A stretch of DNA of 64,000 bases from Candidatus Multivorans sp. (GCA_965238135.1 OZ250177.1:541744-605743), one strand, 5' to 3'; shown: positions 1-46,834, numbered from the stretch's first letter. The notes: generated from the letters alone by a model not told the origin. Program-made: numbers and translations.

Positions 1-921
1 GACGGCGACGGCCTGGTCGATCTCTACGTGGCGAACGACCAGGCGGTGAACCACCTGTGGCTGAACCGGGGCGACGGCACGTTCCGGGAGGACGCGCTGG
101 CGCGCGGGGCGGCGCTCAACGAACTCGGCCAGCCGGAGGCCGGCATGGGGATCGCGGTCGCGGACCCGGACGGCGACGGCGACCTGGACCTGTTCCTGAC
201 CCACCTGGCCGGTGAGACGAACACCTACTACCGGAACGACGGCCACGGTTTCTTTCAGGATGTGACCGACGAGAAGGGACTCGGCGGCGTCAGCCAGGCT
301 TACACCGGGTTCGGCACCTCCTGGTTTGACTACGACGGCGACGGCACGCTCGACCTCTTCGTCGCCAACGGCAAGGTGACGCCGGGCGACACGGCCGCCT
401 TCGACTACCGCGAGCCGAACCAGTTGCTGCGCGGCCTGCCGTCGGGCCGTTACGAGGACGTCTCGGGCCGGGCCGGCGCCGCGTTCGAGCTCCTCGAGGT
501 AAGCCGCGGCGCCGCCTTCGGCGACCTCGACAACGACGGCGATATGGACATTCTGGTGGTCAACAACGAAGGACGGGTCCGGCTGTTGCGGAACGAAGTG
601 GGGAACAGCCGCTCGTGGCTGGCCGTCGACCTCTGCGGCGGCGGCATCCTCGATCGTTCCGCCGTCGGCTCGCGCGTGACCATCAAGGCGGGGGGCAGAA
701 GCTGGACCCGGGACGTGCGGCCGGCGCGCAGCTTCGCCGTTGCCAACGATCCGCGGGTTCACTTCGCGTTCGGTGACACTTCGAGCTTGGATCATCTGAC
801 GGTGCGCTGGTCGCACGGCGGGGTTACCGAGCGTGTGGGGCTGCCGATCAACAGCGTTCTGCGGTTGCTCGCGCCGGGTGGCACCGCACCGGCTGAGGGA
901 GTGTGTCGTGACGCGCGTTGA
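1..921 (+). CDS. ASPIC/UnbV and FG-GAP repeat (CRTAC1-like) protein, 5'-truncated by window edge
   Basis: Frame 1 is open from nt 1. Repeated DxDGDGxxDL FG-GAP/VCBS motifs (DGDGLVDLYVAND, DPDGDGDLDLFL, DYDGDGTLDLFVANG, DLDNDGDMDILVVNN). The C-terminal LTVRWSHGGVTER segment is typical of the ASPIC/UnbV domain. Stop at 919-921. Confidence 0.8.
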   Translation, partial: DGDGLVDLYVANDQAVNHLWLNRGDGTFREDALARGAALNELGQPEAGMGIAVADPDGDGDLDLFLTHLAGETNTYYRNDGHGFFQDVTDEKGLGGVSQAYTGFGTSWFDYDGDGTLDLFVANGKVTPGDTAAFDYREPNQLLRGLPSGRYEDVSGRAGAAFELLEVSRGAAFGDLDNDGDMDILVVNNEGRVRLLRNEVGNSRSWLAVDLCGGGILDRSAVGSRVTIKAGGRSWTRDVRPARSFAVANDPRVHFAFGDTSSLDHLTVRWSHGGVTERVGLPINSVLRLLAPGGTAPAEGVCRDAR

Positions 922-2119: not shown

Positions 2120-2281
2120 CACTCTTGTTTGGTCCCACCGGGTTGGCCCCACCGGGATGGCTCTGCGCCGCCTGGTGGGCGGCGCGCCGGCGGTTGCGCT
2201 TTACTCGGTCTTTACAAACGAAGGGGAGGATCGCGCGCCGTGACCGGAAGTAACGGGGCGCACACCAGAACGAGGGGCACA

Positions 2282-5083
2282 ATGAGAGAAAGCAACGCGA
2301 AGCAGAGAAGCCGGTCAAGTCAGCAAGATCCAATACGGCATGGACGCCGTTTGACCATCCTCGCGCTCGTAGTAGTCATGCACCTGCCGACCCTTTTCGC
2401 GGCTGCCCACGGGCAGACGAACTCGGCACCGGTTGTTCTACTCTCGATCGACGACGTGACCCTCACGGTGGGCTACGGGGCGACACAGTTCGACCTTGCT
2501 ACGCACTTCAATGATCCTGACGGCGATAGCCTCTCGTACGGAGTTTGGCACAGCAACAACGTTGGGGTCCTGTTCTCCGGGAGCACGATGTCTCTGACCG
2601 GCAGGGCAGCCGGCATGAGTACCGTCACAGTGCGAGCCACGGATCCTTCGGACCTCTACGCCGAATTGAGCTTCGCAGCGACGGTCAGAGCGAACACTGC
2701 GCCGGTTGTCCTTCTGCCGATCCCTGACGCGACGCTGACGGTCGGCGGCCGCACCGGGACGGTGGTCCTTTCGTCCCACTTCCAGGATGCTGAGGAGGGC
2801 GACCTGACCTACGCGGCGACATCGGCCGACCCTGCGATAGCGACGGCGACGGTGGCCGAGGGTGTGCTGTCCGTGACTGCCGTTGCGGCAGGAGCGACTA
2901 CCGTCACGGTGACGGCGAGTGACCCGGCCGCGGCGACTTCGGCTCCCGATGTATTCGCGGTGACCGTCGGGTCGCCAGTGAGTGTCACGGTACCGGATGC
3001 CAATCTTCGGACCGCGGTGGAGGCCGCGTTGGCAAGACAGGCCGGCGCGACGATCAACAGTGCCGAGATGGAAGGTCTGGGTCGGCTTGAGTGTGACAGT
3101 TGTGGCATTCAGAACCTCACCGGTTTGGAGTTCGCGACTGGATTGACCGCGCTGGCACTTGGCGGCAACTCGATTACTGACCCGACACCGCTCTCGGGTC
3201 TCACCGGTCTGACGGACCTGGATCTCGGCAGCAACTCGTTGACGGACGTTTCTCCGCTCTCGGGTCTCACCGGCTTGACGGACCTGGATCTCGGCAGCAA
3301 CTCGTTGACGGACGTTTCTCCGCTCTCGGGTCTCACCGGCTTGACGGACCTGGATCTCGGCAGCAACTCGTTGACGGATGTATCTCCGCTCTCGGGTCTC
3401 ACCGGTCTGACGGACCTGGATCTCGGCAGCAACTCGCTGACGGACGTTTCTCCGCTCTCGGGTCTCACCGGCTTGACGGACCTGGATCTCGGCAGCAACT
3501 CGTTGACGGATGTATCTCCGCTTTCGGGTCTCACCGGTCTGACGGACCTGGATCTCGGCAGCAACTCGTTGACGGACGTCACTCCCCTCTCGGGTCTCAC
3601 CGGCTTGACGGACCTGGATCTCGGCGGCAACTCGTTGACGGACGTTTCTCCGCTTTCGGGTCTCACCGGCCTGACGGACCTGGATCTCGCCAGCAACTCG
3701 TTGACGGACGCTTCTCCGCTTTCGGGGCTCACTGCCCTGACCGACGTGGAACTCGACGGCAACTCGCTGACGGACATCTCTCCGCTCTCGAGCCTGACCA
3801 GCCTCAGCCGACTGTATCTGCGCCACAATTGCCTTACGGGTATTCACGCGCTGACGAGCAACACCGGCTTGGGCCAAGGCGACCACATCGCGCTCGAGTG
3901 GAACCCTCTGGTAGCGAGCGCGGTTGCCGGCGATCTTGCCGCGCTGCGGGGCCGCGGAGTGACCGTGCTGGTCTCGGAGACGGCCTCGGTTGAAGTCGTA
4001 GCCCCGCTCAACGTGAGCGCGACCCCCGGTGACGGCGAACTGACATTGACCTGGGACTCCCCTCGAGACCCGGACGACGTAACCGTCTACGAAGTGCGCT
4101 GGCGTTCGGCCACGGGGACGTTCAGCGCCTGGACGATCGTTCCTTGTTCGTCAAAGCGCCGGCACAAGCTGACCGGTCTGGACAACGGCACGGCCTACAC
4201 GGTTGAACTACGGGCCGCAGGCCATGCCGACAACGGCGTCGCGACCGTAGGCCCCACAACAGTGAGGCCGCCCAACAGGGCACCGGTTGTCTCGCTCTCG
4301 ATCCCCGACGTGAGTCTCACAGTCGGCTACGGGGCGACGCAGTTCGACCTGTCGAACCACTTCAGCGACCCGGACGGCGACGAGCTCCTGTTTACAGCCA
4401 GCCCCCCGACTATCGTCACCGCCACCGTCACCGGAAACACGATGACCGTGGCACCGGTCGCAGCGGGCACTGGCGTGGCCACTGTGCGGGCGGCGGATCC
4501 TTCGGGACTCTTCGTTGAGCAGACGTTCAACGTGACCGTAGGCGCCAACGGCGCGCCGGAGGTGTCGCTGGCCATCGACAACATGACGCTCACGGTTGGT
4601 GGCCGGTCGGAAACCGTCACATTGTCAGCGCACTTTCGGGATCCCGAACAGGGGGCGCTGACCTACTCGTCCGTTTCCGCAAGTCCCGCCGTGGCAACCG
4701 CCACGGTATCTGATGGAGTACTGACAGTGAGCGGGGTGTCGGTCGGGACCGCACGGATGACCGTCACGGCGAGTGACCAGGGCGGCGCGACATCGGCTGG
4801 CGCTGTGTTCACGGTGACGGCAAGGGCCGCCGTGAATGTCGAGATACCGGACGCCAATCTCCGCACCGCCGTGGAACAGGAGTTGGGCAAACAGGCGGGG
4901 GCGACGATCACCAGCGCCGAGATGGAACAGATCGTCAGCTTCATGTGTCAAGATTGCAACATTGAAGTCTTGAGTGGTTTGGAGTACGCGACGGGAATGA
5001 CGGACCTCGACCTTGGTGACAATGTTTCAATTGCGGATCTGGCGGCTCTCTCAGGTCTCACTAACCTAACCTTGATTCGCTAG
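2282..5083 (+). CDS. Giant surface protein, 5' portion (signal peptide, 3 cadherin-like/Ig-like DPDGD domains, ~9 LRRs with LRR C-cap, FN3, 2-3 more cadherin-like domains, LRRs); truncated by IS insertion at 5066-5069
   Basis: ATG 2282 preceded by a GAGGGG RBS. Signal peptide RLTILALVVVMHLPTLFAAAHGQ. Repeated ~95-aa domains with a xxHFxDPDGDxLxY motif. 22-aa LRRs LSGLTGLTDLDLGSNSLTDVSP. FN3 segment VYEVRWRS...TAYTVELRA. The reading frame runs straight into the IS terminal inverted repeat, which supplies the stop (LIR*). Confidence 0.85.
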   Translation: MRESNAKQRSRSSQQDPIRHGRRLTILALVVVMHLPTLFAAAHGQTNSAPVVLLSIDDVTLTVGYGATQFDLATHFNDPDGDSLSYGVWHSNNVGVLFSGSTMSLTGRAAGMSTVTVRATDPSDLYAELSFAATVRANTAPVVLLPIPDATLTVGGRTGTVVLSSHFQDAEEGDLTYAATSADPAIATATVAEGVLSVTAVAAGATTVTVTASDPAAATSAPDVFAVTVGSPVSVTVPDANLRTAVEAALARQAGATINSAEMEGLGRLECDSCGIQNLTGLEFATGLTALALGGNSITDPTPLSGLTGLTDLDLGSNSLTDVSPLSGLTGLTDLDLGSNSLTDVSPLSGLTGLTDLDLGSNSLTDVSPLSGLTGLTDLDLGSNSLTDVSPLSGLTGLTDLDLGSNSLTDVSPLSGLTGLTDLDLGSNSLTDVTPLSGLTGLTDLDLGGNSLTDVSPLSGLTGLTDLDLASNSLTDASPLSGLTALTDVELDGNSLTDISPLSSLTSLSRLYLRHNCLTGIHALTSNTGLGQGDHIALEWNPLVASAVAGDLAALRGRGVTVLVSETASVEVVAPLNVSATPGDGELTLTWDSPRDPDDVTVYEVRWRSATGTFSAWTIVPCSSKRRHKLTGLDNGTAYTVELRAAGHADNGVATVGPTTVRPPNRAPVVSLSIPDVSLTVGYGATQFDLSNHFSDPDGDELLFTASPPTIVTATVTGNTMTVAPVAAGTGVATVRAADPSGLFVEQTFNVTVGANGAPEVSLAIDNMTLTVGGRSETVTLSAHFRDPEQGALTYSSVSASPAVATATVSDGVLTVSGVSVGTARMTVTASDQGGATSAGAVFTVTARAAVNVEIPDANLRTAVEQELGKQAGATITSAEMEQIVSFMCQDCNIEVLSGLEYATGMTDLDLGDNVSIADLAALSGLTNLTLIR
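3191..3784 (+). repeat. Nine tandem 66-bp repeats encoding 22-aa leucine-rich repeats; the first eight are >=90% identical at DNA level
   Basis: Unit ctctcgggtctcaccggcttgacggacctggatctcggcagcaactcgttgacggacgtttctccg is reiterated head-to-tail with only a few substitutions per copy. The last unit (3719-3784) is more diverged. Confidence 0.9.
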
Positions 5084-6575
5084 AAACTTCACGCACAGAT
5101 GGCGTTCTGGATGGCAAGGAAATGGTTGGCGACGGCTGGCGAGGCGCCGAGATGGAGCGTCGTCTTTCCTCTCGGTCTCAGCAGGACGGCGGCTCGTCCG
5201 AGGAGCTTGTAGCGGAGGGTGTGGATGCTCTGGAATCGGCGGCGCGTGCGGCGCTTGCGGTTGGTGTTCCTGGCCGGGGCGAGGGTTTGGGCCTGGAAGG
5301 CTCGGGAGAGGTTGAAGGCGAGCACGCTGAGCATCTGCCAGGCGGCGTTGGCGTGCTCTTCGAGGCTGGGCACGCAGTCGAAGGCGAAGCCTCCCTTGAG
5401 TTCGCCGTAGACCTTCTCGTGGCTGCCCCGGCCGTTGTAGAAGTGCCACAGGGTACGGCCCTGAATGCGCTTGTTGGTGAGGATGGCCGAGTACTCGTAG
5501 TGGCCGTCGTCGGGATCGAAGAGGTCGAGCTGGAAGTTCTTCCTGGTCTCGTGCGCGACATGGCGCCGGTAGAGCACGATTCTGCGGACCCGGCCCCAGA
5601 GCGTCTGCCGGGTCTCGTAGCACCAGGTGCGGTCGTCGACGCGCTTCCAGTGCGCCCTGGCGGCGATCTGCTTGAAGTCCAGCCACGGATAGAACGGGGC
5701 CTTGATCGCGTACTCGACGCCTGCGGGGTCGAGGACATCGAGCAGGTCTTCGCGGAAGAAGGCCCCGTCCATGCGGAGTTCCAGGATGCGGCGCTTGCCC
5801 ACGGCGTCGCGGACCTGCCGGATCAGGTCGTCGATGAAGCCGACGGCGGCCTTGCCGTCGTGGATGTTGCCGGGGCGGTTCCGGAGCCGCACGATCTGCC
5901 CCTCCTGGGCCTCGCAGGCGGTAACCGGGTAGTAGCTGGGGGCCTTCCGGCGGTGGGGGTTGTAGCCCCGGAAGGCTCCCTTGACCTTCAGTCCGGTGCT
6001 GACCACCGAACCATCGACGTCGAGGGTGAGCCGGCGACCGCCGGTCCGCCGCAAGACGTTCCCGACCAGCTCCTCGTTGAGCTTCGAGAGCCGTTCCACG
6101 TCCTCGCTGCGGATGCGTTGCATCCAGGCGCTCGCCGTCCGCGGCGCCGGCAGCCTGGAGAGGCCGGCGAAGCGGGCCAGGACGGGGTCGCCCTGCTCGT
6201 GGCGCAGGTGCAGGATGCGCCTTCCTCCGACCAGGATCAGGCCGAGCAGGACCAGGATCATCGGCACGGCGCCGAAGTCGGTGGCGGGGAATCCCGAACC
6301 CACGGCGCGGCGGAGAATGGCGACGAAACCGCTTCGTTTCATGTACTCCCGGACCAGCTCGAGCCCGGCATGAGAGGTAACTTCCTGGCGCCCGGTTCTG
6401 TAATGCGCGTTGCCGTTGACACGGCGCTTCAGATCTGCTCTTCTAGATCGCACTGGGAGTGGCCTTTCGTGGAGGGCGTTCGTGATCTATTCCAACCACG
6501 AGAATACCCCATCCCGCAAGGCCCTCCCGGCCTTCACGTCAGGTCGAACTAACGCATTGTTCTAGCGAATCAAGG
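5070..6575 (-). mobile_element. Intact insertion sequence of the IS4 superfamily (IS701/IS1380-like), 1,506 bp, with 16-bp perfect terminal inverted repeats and a 4-bp target site duplication CTAA
   Basis: Left TIR ccttgattcgctagaa at 5070-5085 is the exact reverse complement of 6560-6575. Flanking direct repeat ctaa at 5066-5069 and 6576-6579. Removing the element and one ctaa restores a continuous LRR reading frame (GLTNLRSLLLFGNAITDLSPLSGLT). Contains a single 454-aa transposase ORF. Confidence 0.9.
5089..6453 (-). CDS. DDE transposase, IS4 superfamily
   Basis: 454-aa ORF occupying the IS interior. Carries the Y(2)R(3)E(6)K signature (YNGRGSHEKVYGELK) characteristic of IS4-like DDE transposases. 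Confidence 0.8.
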   Translation of the reverse strand: MRSRRADLKRRVNGNAHYRTGRQEVTSHAGLELVREYMKRSGFVAILRRAVGSGFPATDFGAVPMILVLLGLILVGGRRILHLRHEQGDPVLARFAGLSRLPAPRTASAWMQRIRSEDVERLSKLNEELVGNVLRRTGGRRLTLDVDGSVVSTGLKVKGAFRGYNPHRRKAPSYYPVTACEAQEGQIVRLRNRPGNIHDGKAAVGFIDDLIRQVRDAVGKRRILELRMDGAFFREDLLDVLDPAGVEYAIKAPFYPWLDFKQIAARAHWKRVDDRTWCYETRQTLWGRVRRIVLYRRHVAHETRKNFQLDLFDPDDGHYEYSAILTNKRIQGRTLWHFYNGRGSHEKVYGELKGGFAFDCVPSLEEHANAAWQMLSVLAFNLSRAFQAQTLAPARNTNRKRRTRRRFQSIHTLRYKLLGRAAVLLRPRGKTTLHLGASPAVANHFLAIQNAICA

Positions 6576-8051
6576 CTAAGGAGCCTGCTGCTTTTTGGCA
6601 ACGCGATCACGGACCTGTCGCCACTCTCGGGCCTCACTGCCCTCGCGGAGTTGGAACTCGACACCAACTCGATCGCGGACGTGTCGCCGCTCTCGGGTCT
6701 GACTGGACTTTCCTCGCTGGATCTCGCCGGAAACCGGATCACGAGTGTGTCGCCGCTCTCCGGTCTTTCCGGCGTTGAGGGGCTGAATCTCTCCACCAAC
6801 GGGATCACGGACGTATCGCCGTTGTCGGGGCTGACCGCCCTGAGACGTCTGTACCTTCGCAACAACGCGATCGCGGACATAGCGGCGCTCTTGGGCCTCA
6901 CGGACCTCAGGCAACTGAACCTCGATGGCAACAGGATCACGAATGTGTCTCCGCTCTCAAGTCTGACGAAGCTCGATCGGCTGGTTCTCCAGAACAACTC
7001 GATCGCGGAGATAGCGCCACTCTCAGGTCTCACCGGCCTTACGCAACTCGACCTCGACGACAACTCGCTCACGGCCCTGGGTGCGCTCTCAGGCCTGACG
7101 AATCTCAGGTGGCTGTATCTTGAAAGGAACTGCTTGACGAGCATCGACGCCTTGACGAGCAATACTGGATTGGGTGCCGGTGACCGCATCGGACTTCGGG
7201 AGAACGCCCTGGACGCTGACTCGCTCGCCAACGGCGTAACCGCACTGCGGGACCGCGGAGCGACCGTCCTAGTGACGGAGGCGCCGACGGCCAGAGTCGG
7301 CGCGCCGGCACACCTGATTGCGATGCCGGGGAACGGGGAGCTAGCTCTGACCTGGCCTGCCCCGCGAGCCGCGGTCGACATCCCGGCTTATGAGGTGCGC
7401 TGGCGTTCGGCCATCGGGACCTTCAGCGATTGGTCGACCGTTCCGTGCTCGTCGAAGGGTCGGCACCTGCTGAGTGGTCTAGTCAACGGCACGACATACA
7501 CGGTGGAACTACGGGCGGCTGGCCATGTCAGTAATGGCGTGAAGAGCGTTACCGCCACACCCACCAGCACGGCCGTTGTCGAGCCGGTGGAGACGATGTT
7601 GTGGGCAGCTTTGACGACACCGGGTGAGGTACCGTCGATATACGACGACACCTTTGAGTGGCTAGTCTCGGCGAGAGGAGCTTGGCCGATGCTGGTAGCG
7701 GAGGCGACCGTTTACCAGCCGCCGGTATACCTCCGTGAACTTGAGATTGCTCAGGGTCAGGAGCGAGGTTCCCACGTTGAGATTGCGCTCTCGACAACAT
7801 CGACGGGTTTGTCGTCGCTACCACCGTGGATGTTCGGTTGGCGAGTCCTGTTCTCGGTTCACGATGTCGGGCTGAACGAAGCGCTCCTCGACGAGGACGG
7901 CTTACCGCTTGTTCAAGCACAACTGAATGCTCGCGGGGAGGGCCGGTTCGCTGGAACGCTCGAGGGCGAGCTCGACACGTTCTGGGCCGCGATCTCGGAT
8001 AGCGGCGACTACGACTGGAGTGAGGGCCTGTACGTTGAACTGAGGCCCTGA
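6576..8051 (+). pseudogene. 3' portion of the IS-disrupted giant surface protein gene (LRRs, LRR C-cap, FN3, C-terminal domain of unknown function)
   Basis: Frame is open from the first base after the right IS end (LRSLLLFGNAITDLSPLSGLTALAELELDTNSIADVSPLS...). It continues the LRR register of the upstream fragment and has no signal peptide or start of its own. It repeats the module order of the upstream part (LRR - LYLxxNCLTxIxALTSNTGLGxGD cap - FN3 YEVRWRS...TYTVELRAAGH). Confidence 0.85.
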
Positions 8052-8090
8052 AGGTGGGGCTCCCGTCGTGTGGACGGGAAGCTGCGTCAG

Positions 8091-8240
8091 TTGGAGAAGG
8101 CGCTTGAGATCGACGCGGATCACCCGCGCGCTCTGCAGGTTCTTTTCCACAGCCTGGACGAAACTAGGAATTCCGGCTAACATTCTTTGTTTGGCCCCAC
8201 CGAGACGGCTCTTGCGCCGCCTGGTCATCGGCGCGACGGA
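8091..8240 (+). repeat. ~150-bp degenerate duplicate of the TPR-gene 3' end plus downstream leader (copy of 2030-2190)
   Basis: 8091-8180 encodes LEKALEIDADHPRALQVLFHSLDETRNSG*, paralogous to the TPR protein C-terminus LERALQIDPDHPRAGEILYSLGGNPEQLR*. It is followed by the shared motif ctaacaYtctttgtttggYcccaccg...ggctctKgcgccgcctggt in both copies. Roughly 75-80% identity. Confidence 0.75.
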
Positions 8241-8527
8241 GTTGCCTTGGTGGGACCCTGAGTCGGGCCGGTCCGGGTTGGACAAGTGCCTGACCGGGAG
8301 CGGCTTGGAGTCGAACGGGCAGTCGGAAGAATGATCGTCGCGGCCGTCGGCCGCGAGACGCCTCCGGGCTTCATCGGGTTTTTTCCATTCCCAGGGAGAA
8401 TCACCAGGGCGTGATCGGTTTTGTCCGATACGCCCGCAGGAGTATTGATCGTGTTTCCGTCCCAGGCTGTCCCGAGGGCGTGTGGATGGCTTGGTGGAAG
8501 GTCGACTAACTAAGTGGGGGGCAATAG

Positions 8528-11500
8528 ATGAGTTGGACGTTTGGTCGCGCGGCATTGCGTGTGGCGGCGGGCTGCGTGTTGGTCTTTGGGGGGACAGGGC
8601 TTGCGTTCGGGCAGATCGTGATCAACGAGTTCATCCAGGACCCGACCCAGGTCAACGACAACGCCGGAGAGTGGTTGGAGCTGTACAACGCGGGCGGTAC
8701 GCGGGTCGACATCAATGGCTGGAAGCTCGATGACGACGCCACGCTGACCGGAGACCACACGATAAACAACGGCGGAAGCCTGTGGATCGAGATCGGTGGC
8801 TACCTGGTCCTGGGAATCAACGACGACACTGGGACCAACGGCGGCGTGACGGTCCACTACGAGTGGAGCAGCTTCGGTCTGACCCAAGGCTCGGACAAGA
8901 TCATCCTGCTCAACGCCACGAACGCCGTGCAGGACCGGGTCGAGTACGACGACGGCGCCACCTTCCCGGACGCCAGCGGCGCTGCCGCGGCCCTCAGGAG
9001 CCCGGACCTGCCCAACGACGTGGGCCGCAATTGGTGCGAGGCGACGACGCCCTACGGCGACGGTGACAAGGGCACCCCCGGCGCCGCGAACGACTGTCCG
9101 CCTTTGATCCCCTCAATCGACTGTTCCGGTGGGGTTGCAATTCACGTGATTCAGGGCAGCGGCGCCGCTAGCCCCTGTACGGAGCAAGACGGGATGGCAA
9201 CCACGAACGACAACATCGTCACCGCGGTCGGTGCCGGTGGCTTCTTCATCCAGACGCCGACGGCGAGCAGCGACAACGATGTCGACACGTCGGACGGCAT
9301 CTTCGTCCTGTACGACGGTACGACGATGATCAACGTCGGCGACCAGGTAGATGTCACCGGAACGGTCGAGGAGTTCTTCGCCTTCACGCGGATCGATGCG
9401 ACTACGTCGGTTACCGACGCCTCGGTGACGATCGATGCCAGCAACCAGACGTTGCCCGCGCCGGTCGAGTTCGGCGCGACGGTGCCTTCGCCCGACCCCG
9501 CCAGTCCAAGTTGTGCGATCGAATACGAGTGCTACGAGGGCATGCGGATTCGGGTCGCGACGGGCACGACAAGCACGCCGAGCCAGTCCTTCGGGGGGAG
9601 GCAGCCGGACCCGGTGGCCGAGATGTTCGTCACCCCGACCTCGTCACGAGCTTTTCGCGAAAAGGGCGTCGAGTACCCGGGTTTGACCTCAAATCCCGGT
9701 ATTCCGGTGTGGGACGGCAATCCGGAGCTGTTCGAACTGGACCCCGACAAGCTGGGGCTGCCGAACGCGTCCTGGGTTCCGGGGACGACGTTCTCCGCCA
9801 CCGGTGTGCTTGGCTATGACTTCGGCGACTATGAGATTTGGCCGACCGAACTGAGGCGCCTCACCGCGGCGCCTCCGCTGCCGCATCCGGTGCGAGTGAG
9901 AACAGCGGGTGAGGTCTCTGTCGGCTCGCTGAACATGTTGAACCTGAATGACGAATCGTCGAACTACAACACCAAGCTCAGCAAGCTGTCGCGCTACGTC
10001 CGTCAGGTGCTCAGGTCGCCCGACATCCTCGGAGTGCAGGAGGTGAACACGATCACGGCGCTCACGGGCCTCGCCGCCAAGATCCGGGCGGACGATCCGA
10101 GCGTCAACTACGCCGCCTACCTGGAGGAAGGGCCAATAGCCGACAGAATTGACGTCGGCTTCCTCGTGCGCTCGGGGGTTACTGTCCAATCGGTGACCCA
10201 GCTCAACAAGACCGAGACCTTCCTCAACCCGACGACGAACATGAACGATATCCTGAACGACCGGCCACCGTTGCTGCTGGAGGCGGCCGTTGAGGGCATT
10301 GAATTCTCGGTCCTCGTCATCCACAACCGCTCGCTTAGAACCTTCGAGACCGAGCGAGTCCAGGCGAAGAGACTGGCGCAGGCGCAGTCCGTCGCCCGCA
10401 TCGCGCAGTCGCGCCAGAGCTCGAAGCTGGTCATCGTGGGGGACTACAACGCGTACCAGTTCACCGATGGCTACGTCGACGTTGTGGGCCAGATCTCCGG
10501 CAACGTGACGCCGAGCGAGAACCTTCGCTCAGGACCGGATCTGGTCACCCCGAATCTCGTCAATCTGATTGACCGTGTGCCCGAACCGCAGCGCTACTCC
10601 TACATCTTCGAAAACAACATGCAGGTGCTCGACCACGCTCTCGTGAACCAGGAGATGGTTGGAAGCGTCGTCGGGATCACCTATGCCCGCGGCAATGCGG
10701 ACGCCCGCCGCTCAGTGGAGGAGGACAATCCGGACTCGGCTCTATTCGCTTCCGACCACGACGGTTTCGTGGTCTATCTGTCGGCGCCGGGGAATCCCGC
10801 TCCGCCGGCCAGTATCAATCCGGACATCGGCGGTGGCGGCGAGCCCGAGCCGGATCCCGAGGCCGACCTCGACCTCGACGCGGAGAGCCAGATCGTCTCG
10901 GCGAGCAAGGTCCGGTACAGCGTCAACGTCGAGAACGCCGGGCCGGGTACCGCTCGGAACGTCGTGGTCACGAGTACCTTCTCAGGTGCGGCCGTCTCGG
11001 TCGTGGCGACGACCTCCGGCTGCGACGAGGATCCGGATGGTGTGCCCGACTGCACCTTGGGCGACATCGCGGCAGGCGACTCGGCCTCCTTCACCATCGA
11101 TGTCGATACCGGTGGGGCAAGCGAATCCTCGCTCAGGTACAACGGTTCCGCCGGCAGCGACACGACGGACCCGGCGCCCACGGACGATGACGACTCCGTC
11201 GTTCAGCCGCTTGGGCCGCCGAACGCGCCGTCCGATCTCACCGCGACCGCGATCAGCTCGACGGCGATCGAGGTCCGCTGGCGGGACAACTCGCGCGTGG
11301 AGACCCAGTTCGATGTCTTCTTGCAAGGTCCGGGCGACCCCAGGCCGCGGTTGTTCGGGTCCGTGCCGGCGAACAGGACATCTCTGGTCGTCGACGACTT
11401 GGTGCCAAGCGTCACGTACGACTTCGCGGTCGAGGCGCGGAACGGGCTGCTCCGCTCCGGGCGGACGCCGACGTCGACCGCGACCACGTGGGACGAGGCG

Positions 11501-12952
11501 GATCTGCGCATTGAGGCGGAAGGCCTGATCGTCTCGGAGGAGCTCGTCCGCTACACCGTCAGCGTCAGCAACGCAGGTCCCGAAGATGCAGCGACTGTCG
11601 TCGTGACCAGTGCTCTGATGGCGGCGGAAGGCGCTTTCGAGACTTCGACGTCCGGCTGTCGCGAGGATCCGGGTGGGGTGCCGGAGTGCAGTCTGGACGA
11701 CATCGACGTCGGAGAGTCGGAGTCGTTCACGATCGATGTCCGGATCGAGGCGGCGAGCCGGAACTCGCTCACGTACGGCGGCGCTATCGGCGACGCGGCG
11801 GATCCGAGAACTGACGCACGCATGGTCGAGATGACACTGCCTCTTGGTCGGCCCGAAGCGCCGTCCCATCTCGAGGCCTCCGCGGTCGGCGGGATGGAGG
11901 TCGAACTCCGGTGGCGGGACAACTCGGACAGAGAGACGGGATTCGGCGTCTTCCTGCAGGGACCGGGCGACTTGAAGCTGAGGATGATCGGAACGGCGCC
12001 GGCGAACACGACCTCAATGGTCGTCAACGAACTCGTACCGACCGTCACCTACAGCTTCGCCGTGGAGGCTCTGAACGGAGCGCTTCGTTCGGAGCGCACG
12101 CCCGAGGCCACGGCGACCACCTGGACCGCGGATGCGGCCCGATGCGGCGAAGAGGACGCTCTGTGCGTCGGGGCTTTTCAGGTGGAGGTCGAGTGGGACG
12201 ACGGCAAGGGCCGGATGGGGCGGGGATTCGCCGAGCGCCTGACGGCGGATGCCGGAGACTTCTGGTTCTTCCATCCCGCCAACATCGAGCTCGTGGTCAA
12301 GGTGCTGAATGGCTGCGCGATGAACGACCACTACTGGGTCTACGCCGCCGGCTTGACGGATGTTGGAGTGACGATGACGGTGCGCGATCTCCGTAACGGC
12401 GTCGAGAAGAGCTGGACGAACCCCCTCGGCAGGCGGTTCAGGCCGATCACGGATTCCTTGGCGTTCGCCACCTGCGACAGCGGACCGAGCGTGACCACTC
12501 AGAGCCGGAGCGTGCTGAGCGGCGCCCCGCGGGGCCGGGGCGAAGAGCTGTACGAGGCCAGCCTGAGCGCTGCCGACCTGATCGACTCGGCCAGCAGTGC
12601 TTGCACTGCGGGCGACGCGACCCTCTGCCTGATGGGCTCACGTTTCGAAGTGCGGGCCGACTGGGAAGTCGGTGGTCAAAGCGGCTTCGCAACCGCCATT
12701 CCGCGCACCCCGGATACGGGGATGTTCTGGTTCTTCAGCTCGGACAACGTCGAGCTGGTGGTCAAGGTGCTCGACGGCTGTCGAGAGAACGGTTACCGAT
12801 GGGTGCTCATGGGTGGCTTGACCGACGTTGGAGTGGAGGTAACGGTGACCGACAGCGAGTCGGGCAAGGCGAAGATGTACCGGAATCTCGAGGGGACGCC
12901 GTTTGCGACGATGTTCGACGTGACCGCCTTTGCCTGCAGCGCGGGGCCGTAG
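8528..12952 (+). CDS. Secreted multidomain extracellular nuclease: signal peptide, lamin-tail domain (LTD), EEP-family nuclease domain, two DUF11-like + FN3 modules, and two copies of a C-terminal Cys-containing domain of unknown function
   Basis: GGGGGG RBS then ATG. Signal peptide ALRVAAGCVLVFGGTGLAFGQ. LTD motif IVINEFIQDP...GEWLELYN...VDINGWKLDD. Endonuclease/exonuclease/phosphatase motifs (VGSLNMLNLND..., GVQEVNT, VIVGDYNAYQF, SDHDGFVV). Duplicated DUF11-like units (VRYSVNVENAGPGTARNVVVTS..., VRYTVSVSNAGPEDAATVVVTS...), each followed by an FN3 (IEVRWRDNS...TYDFAVEA). Two ~115-aa C-terminal repeats with four conserved Cys (C...LC...FWFF...VELVVKVL(N/D)GC...). Architecture resembles ExeM/NucH-type extracellular nucleases. 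Confidence 0.8.
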   Translation: MSWTFGRAALRVAAGCVLVFGGTGLAFGQIVINEFIQDPTQVNDNAGEWLELYNAGGTRVDINGWKLDDDATLTGDHTINNGGSLWIEIGGYLVLGINDDTGTNGGVTVHYEWSSFGLTQGSDKIILLNATNAVQDRVEYDDGATFPDASGAAAALRSPDLPNDVGRNWCEATTPYGDGDKGTPGAANDCPPLIPSIDCSGGVAIHVIQGSGAASPCTEQDGMATTNDNIVTAVGAGGFFIQTPTASSDNDVDTSDGIFVLYDGTTMINVGDQVDVTGTVEEFFAFTRIDATTSVTDASVTIDASNQTLPAPVEFGATVPSPDPASPSCAIEYECYEGMRIRVATGTTSTPSQSFGGRQPDPVAEMFVTPTSSRAFREKGVEYPGLTSNPGIPVWDGNPELFELDPDKLGLPNASWVPGTTFSATGVLGYDFGDYEIWPTELRRLTAAPPLPHPVRVRTAGEVSVGSLNMLNLNDESSNYNTKLSKLSRYVRQVLRSPDILGVQEVNTITALTGLAAKIRADDPSVNYAAYLEEGPIADRIDVGFLVRSGVTVQSVTQLNKTETFLNPTTNMNDILNDRPPLLLEAAVEGIEFSVLVIHNRSLRTFETERVQAKRLAQAQSVARIAQSRQSSKLVIVGDYNAYQFTDGYVDVVGQISGNVTPSENLRSGPDLVTPNLVNLIDRVPEPQRYSYIFENNMQVLDHALVNQEMVGSVVGITYARGNADARRSVEEDNPDSALFASDHDGFVVYLSAPGNPAPPASINPDIGGGGEPEPDPEADLDLDAESQIVSASKVRYSVNVENAGPGTARNVVVTSTFSGAAVSVVATTSGCDEDPDGVPDCTLGDIAAGDSASFTIDVDTGGASESSLRYNGSAGSDTTDPAPTDDDDSVVQPLGPPNAPSDLTATAISSTAIEVRWRDNSRVETQFDVFLQGPGDPRPRLFGSVPANRTSLVVDDLVPSVTYDFAVEARNGLLRSGRTPTSTATTWDEADLRIEAEGLIVSEELVRYTVSVSNAGPEDAATVVVTSALMAAEGAFETSTSGCREDPGGVPECSLDDIDVGESESFTIDVRIEAASRNSLTYGGAIGDAADPRTDARMVEMTLPLGRPEAPSHLEASAVGGMEVELRWRDNSDRETGFGVFLQGPGDLKLRMIGTAPANTTSMVVNELVPTVTYSFAVEALNGALRSERTPEATATTWTADAARCGEEDALCVGAFQVEVEWDDGKGRMGRGFAERLTADAGDFWFFHPANIELVVKVLNGCAMNDHYWVYAAGLTDVGVTMTVRDLRNGVEKSWTNPLGRRFRPITDSLAFATCDSGPSVTTQSRSVLSGAPRGRGEELYEASLSAADLIDSASSACTAGDATLCLMGSRFEVRADWEVGGQSGFATAIPRTPDTGMFWFFSSDNVELVVKVLDGCRENGYRWVLMGGLTDVGVEVTVTDSESGKAKMYRNLEGTPFATMFDVTAFACSAGP

Positions 12953-13095
12953 CCGGCGCCGCTACTCCGGCGTGTACCAGATCGGCGACGTGTAGGCGCG
13001 CTGCCGGGTGACCATGTAGCCGGGGGCCCGGTGGGCTATCGTCGGCCGGTCGAAGGCGGCGGAGTCGCGCCGCATGGAACGCGGAGGCAGGTCAC

Positions 13096-14145
13096 ATGGG
13101 TGAAGGCGGGAACGTGTTGAAGGCGGTTCAACTGGGGCGGAAGTGCGGGCTCCGGGTGTCGGAGTTGTGCCTGGGGACGATGAACTTCGGCGAGCCGGGC
13201 CGGGGTCACCAGGGTGACTGGACGCTCGACCTGGACGCTTCGCGCCCGATCTTCCAGGCGGCGATCGAGCACGGGTTGTTCTACTTCGACTGCGCCGACA
13301 TCTACGGCATCGGCGCCTGCGAGCGACTCGTGGGTTCGCTCCTGCGCGAGCTGCTGCCGCGCGACGAGTACGTCCTCTCGACCAAGGTGTCGATGCCGAT
13401 GGGCAGGTCGCCGAACCAGGGCGGCCTGTCGCGCAAGCACATCATGGAAGGGGTCGACGGCTGTCTGAAGCGTCTCGGTCTCGACTATGTGGACCAGTTG
13501 ATCATCCACCGCCATCCGCACGGGATTCCAGGTCAGGTGCGGGCGCCGATCGAGGAGACGATGGAGGCCCTGCACGACGTGGTGAAGGCCGGCAAGGCGC
13601 TGTACCTGGGCGCCTCGTCCATGTACGCGTGGCAGTTCGTGGAGCTCCAGATGACGGCGCGGCACAACGGCTGGACCGAGTTCGTCTCGATGCAGAACCA
13701 CTACAACCTGGTGTACCGCGAGGAGGAGCGGGAGATGAACCCGTACTGCGCCCGAACCGGCGTGGCGCTCACGCCGTGGTCACCGCTTGCGCGCGGCATC
13801 CTCACCGGTTCCTACAAGGGCAGCTTCGATGAGGGCGGCACCGACCGCTCGAAGGGCGGCGACCGGGTGCGCACGGAAGGCCTGTACCGCGGCGCCGCCA
13901 CGTTCGACATCGCCGACCGCGTGGTCGAGGTGGCGAAGAAGTACGGCCGCACGCCGGCGCAGATTTCGCTTGCCTGGCTGGTGAACAAACCCGAGGTCTG
14001 CGCGCCGGTGGTGGGCGTGTCGAAGGTCGGCCAGTTGGAGCAACTCGTCGAGGCGACGAAGATCGAGCTCGACGCGGAAGATGTGGCCTACATGGAGGAG
14101 CTGTACCAGCCGGTGGAGAACCTGCTGGCGCTCGGCCACTCCTGA
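13096..14145 (+). CDS. Aldo/keto reductase family oxidoreductase
   Basis: N-terminal LRVSELCLGTMNFG and ...DCADIYG...E..VG motifs; typical AKR (Kv-beta/YajO-like) length and conservation. Start may be the GTG a few codons downstream. Confidence 0.8.
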   Translation: MGEGGNVLKAVQLGRKCGLRVSELCLGTMNFGEPGRGHQGDWTLDLDASRPIFQAAIEHGLFYFDCADIYGIGACERLVGSLLRELLPRDEYVLSTKVSMPMGRSPNQGGLSRKHIMEGVDGCLKRLGLDYVDQLIIHRHPHGIPGQVRAPIEETMEALHDVVKAGKALYLGASSMYAWQFVELQMTARHNGWTEFVSMQNHYNLVYREEEREMNPYCARTGVALTPWSPLARGILTGSYKGSFDEGGTDRSKGGDRVRTEGLYRGAATFDIADRVVEVAKKYGRTPAQISLAWLVNKPEVCAPVVGVSKVGQLEQLVEATKIELDAEDVAYMEELYQPVENLLALGHS

Positions 14146-16139: not shown

Positions 16140-17396
16140 ATGCCTGAACGACTACCCTGCGGCTGCTCGCGGCGCGACTTCCTGCGCCGGGGCCTCTACG
16201 GCATCGGCGTTGCCGCCGGTTTGCCCGCGGTACTGGGCCGCGCCTCCGCGGCGCTGGCGCTCGAGGAACTGCAGAGCGGCGTCTCGGACGCGTCGCGCCG
16301 CATCCTCGTCGTGGTCGAGCTGTCCGGCGGCAACGACGGCCTGAACACGGTCGTCCCGTTCCGCAACGACGAGTACTACCGGGTACGGCCGAACCTCGGC
16401 ATCCGCCCGAAGCGCGTGATCGGGCTCACCGAGGAGGCCGGGTTCCATCCGTCGCTGAGCGGCATGGAGCGCCTGTACAAGGAGGGGCAGATGGCGGTGG
16501 TCGAAGGCTGCGGCTACCCGAACCCCAGTCTCTCCCATTTCTCGTCGATGGGCTTCTGGCACACCGGCGTACCGAATGGCGGCGAGGCCCTCGGCTGGCT
16601 CGGCCGCTTCGCCGACGACCACGGTCCCGACGGCACCCCGAACTACATCATCAACGTCGCCCGTTCGCAGTCGCTCGCGGTGCGCGCCGCTCGCCATTCG
16701 CCCCTGGTGTTCGACGATCCGGGACGCTTGCGGCGTCAGGGTACGCCGCAGCAGAAGCGGGCGCTCGCGCAGCTCGGCAGCGACGAGGCGAGCGGCAACG
16801 ACGCCCTCGACTTCCTGCGCGGTACGGCCTCGAACGCCGCCACGAGCGCGGCTCTCGTGCGCGACGCCTGGTCGGGCTACAAGACACCGGTCGACTACGG
16901 CATAGGCGGGCTCGGCGCCGACCTGCGCAAGGTGGCGGCGCTGATCCAGGCCGAGTTGCCGACCCGCATCTACTACGTCAGCTTCCGGGGCAACTCCTTC
17001 GACACCCACGTCCACCAGGCCGACACCCACGCCCGGCTGCTCATGTACATGTCCGACGCGGTGGCCGGTTTCGTGCGCGACATCGAGCGCATGGGCCGCG
17101 CCGACGACGTGGCCGTGCTCATGTTCACCGAGTTCGGACGCCGGGTGGAGGAGAACGGGAGCCTCGGCACCGACCACGGCACCGCCGGTCCGATGTTCGT
17201 CGCCGGCAACGGTGTCGACGGCGGCTTCTACGGCGATACCCCCAGCCTCACCGACCTCGACGACGGCAACCTGAAGATGACCACCGACTTCCGGCGGGTC
17301 TACGCGTCGATGATCGAGGGTTGGATGGGCATGGACGACGCCTCGGCCATCCTCAAGGGCGAGTTCGCGGCGCTGCCGGTCTTCGGCGTGACGTAG
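16140..17396 (+). CDS. DUF1501 domain-containing protein (Tat-secreted, sulfatase/alkaline-phosphatase-like fold)
   Basis: ATG at 16140. Twin-arginine signal SRRDFLRRGLYGIGVAAGLPAV. Conserved DUF1501 C-terminal block (FTEFGRRVEENGSLGTDHGTAGPMFVAG). Canonical partner of DUF1800. Confidence 0.8.
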   Translation: MPERLPCGCSRRDFLRRGLYGIGVAAGLPAVLGRASAALALEELQSGVSDASRRILVVVELSGGNDGLNTVVPFRNDEYYRVRPNLGIRPKRVIGLTEEAGFHPSLSGMERLYKEGQMAVVEGCGYPNPSLSHFSSMGFWHTGVPNGGEALGWLGRFADDHGPDGTPNYIINVARSQSLAVRAARHSPLVFDDPGRLRRQGTPQQKRALAQLGSDEASGNDALDFLRGTASNAATSAALVRDAWSGYKTPVDYGIGGLGADLRKVAALIQAELPTRIYYVSFRGNSFDTHVHQADTHARLLMYMSDAVAGFVRDIERMGRADDVAVLMFTEFGRRVEENGSLGTDHGTAGPMFVAGNGVDGGFYGDTPSLTDLDDGNLKMTTDFRRVYASMIEGWMGMDDASAILKGEFAALPVFGVT

Positions 17397-17471
17397 AGTC
17401 GGCGTCTCAGGGATGTCTGGATACGACATGCCTGAAGTGACGCGGGACGCTACGGGAGGTCGCCTAACCAG

Positions 17472-19823
17472 ATGGACAAGCGAGATCTCTCAGAGCGCGA
17501 TATCTGCACGAAGTTCATCACGCCCGCCCTGCGCGGGGCCGGATGGGACGAGATGTCACAGCTTCGCGAGGAGGTGAGCTTCACCGATGGCCGCATCACC
17601 GTGCGAGGAAAGATGGTTTCGCGCGGAAAGCGGAAGCGCGCCGACTACATCCTCGACTTCAAGCCGAACATTCCGCTCGCGGTGATCGAGGCCAAGGACA
17701 ATACCCACAGCGTGGGCGACGGCATGCAGCAGGCCTTGGACTACGCCGGGACCCTGAACATCCCGTTCGCGTTCTCGTCGAACGGCGACGGCTTCGTGTT
17801 CCACGACCGCACGGGGGCCAGTACGCCCCGCGAGACGAACCTGCCGCTCGACGCGTTTCCGTCGCCGGCCGATCTGTGGGCGCGCTATCGGGCCTGGAAG
17901 GGCCTGACGCCGGAGGCCGAGAGGATCGTCCTCCAGGACTACTTCGAGGACCGTGGCGGCAAGACGCCGCGCTACTACCAGATCAACGCCGTCAACGCGA
18001 CGATCGAGGCCATCTCCAAGGGGCAGGACCGCATCCTGCTCGTCATGGCCACGGGCACGGGCAAGACGTACACCGCTTTCCAGATCATCTGGCGGCTGTG
18101 GAAGGCGCGGCGCAAGAAGCGCATCCTGTTCCTTGCCGACCGCAACGTGCTCATCGACCAGACGATCGCGAACGACTTTCGCCCGTTCGGCGGGGCCATG
18201 ACCAAGCTCTCGCGCGACATCGACGCCTCCTTCGAGGTGTATCTCGGCCTCTATCAGGCGATCACGGGGCCGGACGACCACCAGAAGGCGTTTCGGAAGT
18301 TCTCGCCGGAGTTCTTCGATCTGATCGTGATCGACGAATGCCACCGGGGAAGTGCAGCTGACGATTCGGCGTGGCGCGAGATCCTCGAGTACTTCTCCTC
18401 CGCAACCCAGATCGGCCTCACCGCCACGCCGAAGGAGACGAAGTATGTCTCCAACATCGACTACTTCGGGGAGCCCGTCTTCTCCTACTCCCTGAAACAG
18501 GGCATCCGCGACGGCTTCCTCGCGCCCTACAAGGTGGTCAAGGTCCACATCGACCGGGACGTCGAAGGCTACCGTCCGGAAAAGGGCCAGCTTGACCGCG
18601 ACGGAGAGGAGGTTGAGGACCGCATCTACAATGTCAGGGACTTCGATCGCACGCTCGTCATCGACGGGCGGACGAAGCTGGTGGCTGAGAAGGTCACGAC
18701 GTTTCTGCGGGAGAGCGGCGACCGCTTCCAGAAGGCGATCGTTTTCTGCGTCGATCAGGAGCACGCCGCCCGGATGCGCCAGGCGCTCGTCAACGAGAAT
18801 GCCGATCTTGTCGAGCGCAACGCACGGTATGTCATGCGGATCACGGGCGCGGACGAGGCTGGAAAGGCCGAACTGGGGAACTTCATCGATCCCGAATCGA
18901 GTCACCCGGTGCTCGTCACCACGTCGCGCCTGCTGTCCACCGGCGTCGATGTCCAGACGTGCCGGGTCATCGTGCTCGACCGGGAGGTAGGCTCGATGAC
19001 CGAGTTCAAGCAGATCGTCGGCCGCGGCACCCGAGTGCATGAGGACACCGGGAAGTTCTACTTCACGCTCATCGACTTCCGGAACGCGAGCGGCCACTTC
19101 GCGGACCCGGACTTCGACGGCGAGCCGGTGCAGATCTACGAACCAGGCGTGGGGGATCCGATCCTTCCTCCCGATACGCCCGAGGATGAAGACCTCGGTG
19201 AAGAGGAGATGGCCGCTATCGGGGGCGGCAACGGCCTGCCGCCCACGGAGACGCATCCCCTGAAGATCTTTGTTGATGGCATCGAGGCGACCATCGTCGC
19301 CGAGCGGGTCGAGTACCTCGACGAGCACGGCAAGCTCATCACCGAGTCGCTACGCGACTTCACGAGGAAGGCGCTGCGCAGGCGCTTCGCGAGCCTGGAC
19401 GACTTCCTGAACCGTTGGAATGCTGCGGAGCGCAAGCAGGCGATCATCGACGAGATGGCGGCCGAGGGCCTGCCACTTACTGCGATTGTCCCTGAATTGG
19501 GCAAGGATCTCGACCCCTTCGATCTCGTCTGCCACATCGCCTTCGACGTCAAGCCGCTAACCCGCCGGGAACGGGCCGAGAACGTCAGGAAACGGGACGT
19601 GTTCACGAAGTACGGAGGACAGGCCCGCGCCGTGCTCGACGCACTGCTCGACAAGTACGCCGACGAGGGCGTCATCAATCTCGACGACGCCAACGTGCTC
19701 AGGATTCCGCCGCTCGACAGTCTCGGCACCCCGGTCGAGCTCGTCCGCGCCTTCGGCGGAAAGCCCGGCTTCGAGCGGGCCGTGCGCGATCTTCAGTCGG
19801 CGCTCTACAGGGAGGTCGCCTAA
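17472..19823 (+). CDS. hsdR: Type I restriction-modification system, restriction (R) subunit HsdR
   Basis: N-terminal HsdR_N PD-(D/E)xK nuclease motif (DYILDF...IEAKD). SF2 helicase motifs I LVMATGTGKT, II DECHR, III LTATP, VI QIVGRGTR. GGGAGG RBS upstream. Confidence 0.9.
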   Translation: MDKRDLSERDICTKFITPALRGAGWDEMSQLREEVSFTDGRITVRGKMVSRGKRKRADYILDFKPNIPLAVIEAKDNTHSVGDGMQQALDYAGTLNIPFAFSSNGDGFVFHDRTGASTPRETNLPLDAFPSPADLWARYRAWKGLTPEAERIVLQDYFEDRGGKTPRYYQINAVNATIEAISKGQDRILLVMATGTGKTYTAFQIIWRLWKARRKKRILFLADRNVLIDQTIANDFRPFGGAMTKLSRDIDASFEVYLGLYQAITGPDDHQKAFRKFSPEFFDLIVIDECHRGSAADDSAWREILEYFSSATQIGLTATPKETKYVSNIDYFGEPVFSYSLKQGIRDGFLAPYKVVKVHIDRDVEGYRPEKGQLDRDGEEVEDRIYNVRDFDRTLVIDGRTKLVAEKVTTFLRESGDRFQKAIVFCVDQEHAARMRQALVNENADLVERNARYVMRITGADEAGKAELGNFIDPESSHPVLVTTSRLLSTGVDVQTCRVIVLDREVGSMTEFKQIVGRGTRVHEDTGKFYFTLIDFRNASGHFADPDFDGEPVQIYEPGVGDPILPPDTPEDEDLGEEEMAAIGGGNGLPPTETHPLKIFVDGIEATIVAERVEYLDEHGKLITESLRDFTRKALRRRFASLDDFLNRWNAAERKQAIIDEMAAEGLPLTAIVPELGKDLDPFDLVCHIAFDVKPLTRRERAENVRKRDVFTKYGGQARAVLDALLDKYADEGVINLDDANVLRIPPLDSLGTPVELVRAFGGKPGFERAVRDLQSALYREVA

Positions 19824-19826
19824 GAG

Positions 19827-24722: not shown

Positions 24723-24813
24723 GTCCGGTACGCGACGGTCGGTCCCGACCGGGCTTTGCGGAGTGGATTCGGACGTGTTCACTACGGCGAAGAACCTGCC
24801 GGCGGCTGGCTGA

Positions 24814-46831: not shown

Positions 46832-46834
46832 CAG

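Follow-up and report, generated by a model that had tools for sequence, protein, structure and literature searches.

The stretch analysed here, 64,000 nt of Candidatus Multivorans sp. (GCA_965238135.1 OZ250177.1:541744-605743; hereafter the window, with all coordinates counted from its start), carries a gene for a secreted multidomain nuclease of 1,474 aa. From N to C terminus, this protein comprises a signal peptide, a lamin-tail domain (LTD), an OB-like region, an endonuclease/exonuclease/phosphatase (EEP) domain, two modules each made of a DUF11 and an FN3 domain, and two copies of a four-cysteine domain that we call the tail (Table 1). The gene is intact and encodes a large secreted DNA-cutting enzyme of an uncultured Acidobacteriota bacterium. 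An initial annotation of the window, made from the sequence alone, had placed a secreted 1,474-aa open reading frame (ORF) here; its coordinates proved exact, and the source contig (a 4.45-Mb contig, ENA assembly ERZ26167216) has the identical gene call. A G-rich, Shine-Dalgarno-like run lies 7 to 12 nt 5′ of the ATG start. Read by eye, the N terminus, MSWTFGRAALRVAAGCVLVFGGTGLAFG followed by Q, is a predicted Sec signal peptide, with a basic n-region, the hydrophobic core VAAGCVLVFGGTGLAF and then AFG ahead of that Q. The signal peptide is kept in a syntenic orthologue of 1,483 aa, 66% identical, at locus L001 (1924-6372) of a Ca. Multivorans metagenome-assembled genome (MAG; Acidobacteriota; Thermoanaerobaculia), in which the same aldo-keto reductase gene comes next. 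A scan of positions 7800-13300 found no sigma-70-like promoter and no more terminator-like sites than expected by chance, such a scan being uninformative for this phylum.

Table 1. Features of the nuclease gene, followed by other features of the window
Feature	Coordinates	Strand	Residues	Basis or remark
Whole gene, secreted multidomain nuclease	8528..12952	+	1-1474	ORF list and translation; ATG start; stop codon included
Predicted Sec signal peptide	8528..8611	+	1-28	By reading the sequence; cleavage after AFG
Lamin-tail domain LTD (PF00932)	8606..8947	+	27-140	Pfam E 4.6e-17, 62.8 bits vs cut-off 34.3
OB-like (YhcR/SpnA OB3-OB4-like) nucleic-acid-binding region	9125..9892	+	~200-455	NF033681 and SpnA alignments
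EEP (DNase I-like) catalytic domain	9893..10792	+	~456-755	Exo_endo_phos PF03372, residues 467-744
Stalk module 1, DUF11 (CLIPPER) + FN3	10865..11497	+	780-990	Pfam DUF11 at residues 788-891, fn3 at residues 900-978
Stalk module 2, DUF11 (CLIPPER) + FN3	11498..12127	+	991-1200	Tandem duplicate of module 1
Tail copy 1, unnamed four-Cys beta-sandwich	12128..12487	+	1201-1320	Hidden Markov model (HMM) envelope, residues 1192-1318; pLDDT ~96 in tandem model
Low-confidence linker between tail copies	12488..12592	+	1321-1355	pLDDT 47-55 in tandem AlphaFold2 model
Tail copy 2, reaching the protein's last residue	12593..12949	+	1356-1474	pLDDT 90.5; query for family searches
FG-GAP/ASPIC-UnbV repeat protein, 5′ of nuclease	28-921			
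TPR protein, 5′ of nuclease	833-2119			
Insertion sequence	5067-6578			
DDE_Tnp_1_4 transposase gene of the insertion sequence	5089-6453	-		
Type I restriction-modification, hsdR	17472-19823			
Type I restriction-modification, hsdM	19827-21278			
Type I restriction-modification, hsdS	21275-23044			
M78/IrrE-like peptidase	23041-24189			
AAA_15/AAA_21 ATPase	40359-42206	-		Type often in defence systems
Multi-haem-type cytochrome c protein	45697-47637	+		
RND efflux pump and HlyD-type adaptor	52561-57118	-		
SMC protein	59726-63268	-		

The N-terminal part, or head, is accepted by homology as a secreted metal-dependent nuclease of the ExeM/NucH/SpnA kind, since the model NF033681 (ExeM_NucH_DNase) aligns with it end to end (model positions 12-544 of 546 with residues 232-751; E 1.2e-35), its EEP residues are intact, and these residues correspond to those of ExeM and SpnA. 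SpnA, the cell-wall-anchored nuclease A of Streptococcus pyogenes (PDB 9SF8/9SF9), joins OB domains to a Mg2+-dependent nuclease of the DNase I-like type and carries an LPXTG anchor; among solved structures it comes closest by sequence (E 1.5e-7), with residues 205-507 of the protein aligning to residues 4-306 of chain 9sf8. The LTD stands ahead of the nuclease, behind the signal peptide predicted by eye, as in ExeM and NucH, and right before the EEP domain lies the putative OB-like region, which was assigned from sequence alignments alone (NF033681 from residue 232, SpnA across residues 205-507). In an alignment of 22 sequences that reaches homologues of about 33% identity, six positions show no variation (N469, E505, H599, D639, N641 and D702), and three more (H703, D743 and H744) keep their residue in at least 90% of the sequences. 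The set of catalytic residues characteristic of the EEP domain (Asn, Glu, His, Asp-x-Asn, Asp and Asp-His), whose His and Asp members the initial annotation had singled out for checking, is therefore intact. The catalytic positions correspond to E521, H642, N699, D822 and H823 of ExeM (residues per PMC6085458) and to E592, H716, D767, N769 and D810 of SpnA; when the GD(F/Y)N and LD(N/H) motifs are aligned directly, D639/N641 pair with SpnA D767/N769, and D702 with D810.

The annotation had called the protein ExeM/NucH-type. The order of LTD, OB-like region and EEP is indeed the same, but the head scores 123.4 bits with NF033681, against a curated cut-off of 300, and 61.2 bits with the ExeM model NF033680 (exonuc_ExeM-GG), against 1,300. 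Nor does the protein end in a GlyGly-CTERM/rhombosortase signal; its C terminus is formed by a folded four-Cys domain whose last residues are ...FACSAGP, and has neither a hydrophobic helix nor a basic tail. Because the score falls so far under the cut-off and the GlyGly-CTERM is missing, we consider the head a relative of ExeM and not a curated ExeM/NucH member. The low score might also be expected if the EEP domain belonged to some other phosphoesterase, such as a phosphatase or an enzyme resembling phospholipases and sphingomyelinases, and the Pfam scores for EEP families are modest as well (31.6 bits against a cut-off of 24.5 for Exo_endo_phos, PF03372, with PF19580 under its cut-off). We consider this highly improbable. 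The NF033681 alignment spans the entire model, including the OB-like region; the homology to SpnA runs through the OB3/OB4 region; an LTD precedes the EEP domain, as it does in ExeM; and the Asp-x-Asn motif keeps its substrate-binding Asn. Head homologues, where their sources give them a name, are called "lamin tail domain-containing protein" or "predicted extracellular nuclease," and the latter name likewise argues against a different phosphoesterase.

Both characterized relatives of the head differ from the protein in what follows the nuclease. Full activity of ExeM from Shewanella oneidensis depends on its LTD, its OB-like region and its EEP domain, and the enzyme has a strict requirement for Ca2+ together with Mg2+ or Mn2+ (PMC6085458). 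With ExeM (and with Xds and NucH; NF033681/NF033680), the protein shares the signal peptide, LTD, OB-like (YhcR-like) region and EEP domain in that order, the metal- and phosphate-binding residues, and the presence of a C-terminal element after the nuclease. However, ExeM is 871 aa long and ends in a proline-rich linker and a GlyGly-CTERM transmembrane anchor, whereas here the nuclease is followed by a stalk of about 420 aa and then by the tandem four-Cys domains, which take up about 275 aa, and a transmembrane helix is absent. SpnA, for its part, shares the OB domains, the DNase I-like nuclease and the catalytic E/H/D-x-N/D positions, and carries a C-terminal surface tether. It has no LTD, stalk or four-Cys domains, its overall identity to the protein is low, and its anchor is the LPXTG sortase motif of the Gram-positive cell wall.

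The stalk consists of two modules that share 56% identity across 209 aa (E 3e-76). DUF11 (PF01345) is found twice, with 66.5 bits against a cut-off of 24.6 (TIGR01451, 31.5 bits against 24), and so is fn3 (66.2 bits in Pfam), as would be expected from the two modules of DUF11-like and FN3 domains proposed initially. Since 2025, DUF11 has gone by the name CLIPPER; it is described as a domain that forms the stalks of surface proteins, with disulfides that are frequent in Acidobacteriota (PMC12617251). As in the surface proteins described there, CLIPPER domains lie here between an N-terminal head and a C-terminal element, which in those proteins serves sorting or anchoring, and they contain Cys pairs, C832/C842 in the first copy and C1044/C1054 in the second. 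The differences are that the head is an enzyme and not an adhesin, that there are two CLIPPER domains only, alternating with FN3, and that the candidate anchor domain is an unnamed one. The two copies begin with DLDLDA (residues 780-785, nt 10865-10882) and DLRIEA (residues 991-996, nt 11498-11515), and, by eye, each has Ala at what we take to be the position of the isopeptide Lys in the first strand. An intramolecular Lys-Asn isopeptide bond occurs in only a subset of the CLIPPER family; both copies here may be disulfide-stabilized variants without it.

A search with the head (residues 1-760) gave 1,048 matches at E <= 1e-5 among 8,000 scored candidates, and the best 119 were classified. One DUF11-FN3 module followed by two tails was seen in 41 of these 119, in proteins of about 1,250 to 1,290 aa, which makes LTD-OB-EEP-(DUF11-FN3)-tail-tail the commonest architecture among these relatives. 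Two stalk modules were seen in one other protein of the set; at the related loci compared, L001 and L002 carry two and L003 carries one. The second module is a recent, lineage-local tandem duplication. Thus, the description of this copy as "unusually elaborated" holds for the second module, which is rare, but not for the remainder, since one module with two tails is the commonest form and the tail itself is generic. Within its lineage (Thermoanaerobaculia, near Ca. Multivorans), the nuclease is ordinary.

Divergence along the gene (8528-12949) is mosaic in comparisons with L001, L002 and L003. Relative to L001, the LTD, OB and EEP regions are 53 to 63% identical as protein (64 to 68% as DNA, with synonymous sites saturated), while identity reaches 92% in the tail and 97% in the downstream aldo-keto reductase; relative to L002, the values are 71 to 86% for the head and 86 to 88% for the tail. 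This suggests either that the head was exchanged, by recombination or allele replacement, next to a tail and flank that stayed conserved, or that diversifying selection has acted.

The two tail copies, of about 120 aa each, are 45% identical (E 2e-27), and a six-frame HMM scan found just these two in the 64-kb window. Each has four cysteines (1206, 1213, 1263 and 1316 in copy 1; 1359, 1367, 1418 and 1470 in copy 2) and an FWFF ... (I/V)ELVVKVL(N/D)GC core, features already recognized in the initial annotation, which also held that the repeats match no commonly named family. This, too, has stood up. Pfam gave no family at E <= 10, NCBIfam no model for either copy or for the tail of six family members scanned, and a profile of the tail alignment no match among PDB sequences at E <= 10; Foldseek against PDB libraries returned nothing under E 0.4, and literature searches found no description of such a domain. 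PF27099, a precomputed label on two tail-only members, was considered and discarded, the "faint" Rv1733c match having turned out to be chance.

AlphaFold2 predicts a single tail to be all-beta but for one short helix, the strands numbering about 10, at a mean confidence (predicted local distance difference test, pLDDT) of 90.5. For the tandem, it gives a pLDDT of 88, a predicted template modelling score (pTM) of 0.85 and a defined mutual orientation of the copies; because the pTM is this high despite a disordered 35-aa linker, the copies are predicted to pack as one unit. Conservation was assessed over 624 distinct tail sequences. The third and fourth cysteines are jointly lost in 90 of them and the first and second jointly in 41; lone losses within the former pair are rare, and 48 lack just the first cysteine, perhaps an artefact of the alignment edge. 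Such joint loss implies two predicted disulfides, C1-C2 and C3-C4, and these in turn would place the tail outside the cytoplasm. Many polar residues (R, T, D, N, E, K, D, Y, N and D) are conserved in at least 90% of the sequences, which suggests a putative specific site for a ligand or metal. Aromatic residues (YFWFF, W and F) are conserved as well.

The tail is by no means confined to nucleases. The family was collected by a word-seeded search with one repeat, followed by an exhaustive HMMER search with a profile of the resulting set. The former gave 14 short hypothetical proteins; the latter found the tail in 10,423 cluster representatives (50% identity) at E <= 1e-3, and in 5,479 at E <= 1e-30. 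Family members are named for a passenger domain or simply "hypothetical," and Pfam covers the tail in none of 67 members scanned. We also scanned genomes with the tail profile, using one genome per GTDB species, and examined the best 80 of at least 590 matches as loci. Acidobacteriota MAGs account for 79 of these 80, most of them Thermoanaerobaculia and the others Holophagales or "Acidobacteria bacterium." The ranking is more than a list of near relatives, because identity to the query is flat at 45 to 57% from about rank 15 on. The family thus is apparently lineage restricted, to Acidobacteriota in the matches seen.

The passengers are diverse. Those recognized by Pfam include Sortilin/BNR, LRR, FN3, PKD, M4 and S8 peptidase, LVIVD and Calx-beta domains, among others, and most proteins have no Pfam domain; the N-terminal parts of 98 ORFs from the genome loci fall into 33 unrelated groups. 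A hydrophobic N terminus, in keeping with a tail that lies outside the cytoplasm, is present in 96 of the 127 family proteins that start with Met. Because it is fused to so many unrelated secreted passengers, the tail is not a feature of the nuclease but a generic module of the secreted proteins of this lineage. Among 104 ORFs with a tail in the genome loci, 68 have one copy and 36 have two, and the median linker between copies in the family is 28.5 aa. One Ca. Multivorans MAG has at least five tail genes (at L001 and L008). At several loci, three to five consecutive genes on the same strand end in a tail (L008, 3877-10765; L009, 3310-10666; L011, 1439-10930; L013, 3877-9775; L068, 1886-9344), typically one two-copy gene followed by single-copy genes. 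These runs suggest local expansion of a gene family or co-regulated sets of surface proteins.

One can envision from the packed model and the copy numbers that the tail has no external ligand at all and acts as a structural cap for dimerization or stabilization, pairing within the chain in two-copy proteins and between chains in single-copy ones. AlphaFold2 does pack both copies together (pTM 0.85), proteins with one and with two copies are both common, the runs place adjacent single-copy genes side by side, and SpnA occurs as both monomer and dimer. Yet the invariant polar and charged set exceeds what a dimer interface alone would need, and a cap gives no reason for one lineage to add the module to dozens of unrelated secreted proteins. 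We regard this explanation as unlikely.

Where the tail sits in its proteins bears on another explanation, that it is a secretion or sorting signal, possibly cleaved, for an export or attachment machinery specific to the lineage. Known systems offer two functional analogues of the tail. The C-terminal domain (CTD) of the type IX secretion system (T9SS) of Bacteroidota is single, strictly C-terminal and cleaved, whereas SLH domains are helical and come in threes, in tandem as one pseudo-symmetric unit, and may be at either end of the protein. Like both, the tail is a lineage-typical terminal module on many unrelated secreted proteins; like SLH domains, it has tandem copies, a predicted pseudo-symmetric unit and placement at either terminus. 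In the Pfam and PDB searches it shows no relationship in sequence or fold to either. A sorting signal would certainly account for the strong C-terminal bias (in the 104 ORFs the last copy is followed by a median of zero residues, and 128 of 150 top representatives, or 85%, end no more than 5 residues past the tail, most often in ...ATCP), as well as for the sharing of one module by unrelated passengers, all in one lineage, and the size and all-beta fold of the tail are comparable to those of the T9SS CTD. However, a tail pair comes right after the N-terminal signal peptide, with the passengers downstream, in about 12 of the 150 (P0054, P0059, P0061, P0101, P0115, P0157 and P0159 among the cases), and is internal in about 5 more. 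A C-terminal signal should not tolerate such placements, and these look like genuine proteins, so that the tail is biased to termini but not strictly C-terminal; the idea of a strictly C-terminal signal was downgraded once they were found. In addition, tandem duplication is common in the tail, whereas known sorting domains are single; neither Por_Secre_tail nor any other sorting model, CTERM models included, matches the tail in Pfam or NCBIfam even at permissive thresholds; and no candidate machinery came to light. We think that a sorting signal is improbable, if somewhat less so than a cap.

Some of the passengers are hydrolases (M4 and S8 peptidases and this nuclease), and the tail could therefore be a module like a carbohydrate-binding module (CBM), holding enzymes on an environmental polymer or surface, whether polysaccharide, detritus or mineral, and not on the cell's own envelope. 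CBMs, too, typically lie at a terminus and in tandem, and the conserved aromatics would suit such a role. But many passengers are not enzymes (LRR, BNR/sortilin, PKD and LVIVD proteins), and most have no recognizable catalytic domain. CBM families usually cross phyla, unlike the tail in the matches seen, and comparison with known CBM families gave no sequence similarity and no convincing similarity of fold (Pfam, PDB profile and Foldseek against PDB). Substrate binding of this sort seems to us a minority possibility, although a better one than either a cap or a sorting signal.

We favor the view that the protein is a surface DNase built as head, stalk and anchor, in which the tail is a tether specific to the lineage, and would give this a probability of roughly 0.55. 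The Sec signal peptide would take the nuclease out of the cytoplasm. By homology, the LTD, OB-like region and EEP domain would bind and cut extracellular nucleic acid by a two-metal (Mg2+/Ca2+) mechanism, as in ExeM and SpnA. Likely uses would be the scavenging of phosphate and nucleotides or the turnover of matrix DNA. The two CLIPPER-FN3 modules, judging from the role of these domains elsewhere, would serve as a rigid spacer. Beyond them, the two four-Cys beta-sandwiches are predicted to pack into one pseudo-dimeric unit, and we propose that they keep the enzyme attached to a conserved ligand in the envelope or matrix of the cell that makes it, at the place in the protein where ExeM has its GlyGly-CTERM anchor and SpnA its LPXTG anchor. 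The tail is read as an anchor because both of these relatives carry C-terminal cell anchors, and as a binding unit because tandem copies are frequent (36 of 104), the model is packed and polar residues are conserved. The tether role proposed here is thus suggested by distribution, position, copy number, predicted disulfides and analogy.

Several points weigh against this view. The activity of the head is assigned by homology, and its substrate preference (DNA, RNA or other phosphoesters) is an extrapolation, given 123 bits against a cut-off of 300. For the tail, localization and ligand are inferred across the whole family, and the ligand site, the disulfide geometry and the interface between copies are likewise deduced and not taken from model coordinates. 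The case for lineage restriction draws on the 80 best of at least 590 genome matches and on the names given in sources. Finally, the arrangement of head, stalk and anchor leaves the crossing of the outer membrane unexplained.

A broader proposal, which we offer tentatively and consider less probable than the tether as such, is that the tail is the recognition element of an undescribed, Thermoanaerobaculia-specific system of surface display, through which dozens of secreted proteins per genome would be directed to one conserved ligand of the envelope or matrix. The displayed set might include nucleases, peptidases, and LRR, BNR and PKD proteins. Such a system could be a functional parallel to SLH domains on a secondary cell-wall polymer or to the T9SS CTD on anionic lipopolysaccharide (A-LPS), achieved by a beta-sandwich without a close solved relative.

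The surroundings of the gene tell us rather less about its role. A ComEA-like secreted protein encoded nearby had been taken by the initial annotation as a sign of investment in extracellular DNA, but the link is weak: the gene is on the opposite strand, with a type I restriction-modification island in between that is absent from L001. The ORF concerned (25263-26585, minus strand, 440 aa) has a C-terminal HHH_3 match; its Arg/Pro-rich N-terminal part of about 230 aa looks like a high-GC ORF artefact, and the real gene probably encodes a 210-aa secreted protein (about 25263-25895, minus strand, starting MKCSALMW...) with a signal peptide and two HhH repeats. Its orthologue at L001 (10816-11445, minus strand) is 87% identical and lies 4.4 kb from the nuclease gene, on the opposite strand, past three unrelated genes. 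In the window, an aldo-keto reductase, a DUF1800 protein, the restriction-modification system, which is complete, and an M78/IrrE-like peptidase are encoded between the two. A functional nuclease-ComEA locus was rejected, the genes being convergent and separated by unrelated genes even at L001, which has no island; there is proximity without evidence of co-regulation. The block comprising the restriction-modification and M78 genes (about 17396-25262), missing from L001, looks like an inserted defence island.

On the 5′ side, the FG-GAP/ASPIC-UnbV and TPR pair is kept beside the nuclease gene at L001 and L002, with 78 to 83% DNA identity. Between this pair and the nuclease, the window has a gene for an LRR/FN3/Big_9 surface protein (2129-8051) with an insertion sequence within it. 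The insertion sequence has 19-nt terminal inverted repeats (5067-5085 and 6560-6578, 95% complementary), and LRR repeats resume at 6599, just past it; the flanking ORFs (2129-5083 and 6651-8051) are 59% identical over their LRR-FN3 parts. The block formed by this gene and the insertion sequence (about 2139-8082) is a strain-specific insertion beside the nuclease, because it is absent from L001 and L002, where the nuclease gene directly follows the TPR gene. Farther away, long ORFs without a Pfam match occupy 33012-35273, 36857-38926, 47604-49664 and 49833-51182.

As an enzyme, the nuclease extends the list of LTD-OB-EEP DNases, a kind linked to foraging on extracellular DNA. The tail matters more. 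It is a real and very large domain family, with more than 10,000 clusters, which the Pfam and NCBIfam copies searched leave unnamed and uncovered, which has no close solved structural relative, and whose taxonomic range is apparently narrow. Sediments, soils and wastewater abound in Thermoanaerobaculia and their relatives among the Acidobacteriota, of which hardly any have been cultured. Naming the tail as a family would annotate thousands of "hypothetical" proteins and mark the secreted and surface proteome of this lineage. If the tail is indeed a tether, it would also point to the component of the envelope that is bound.

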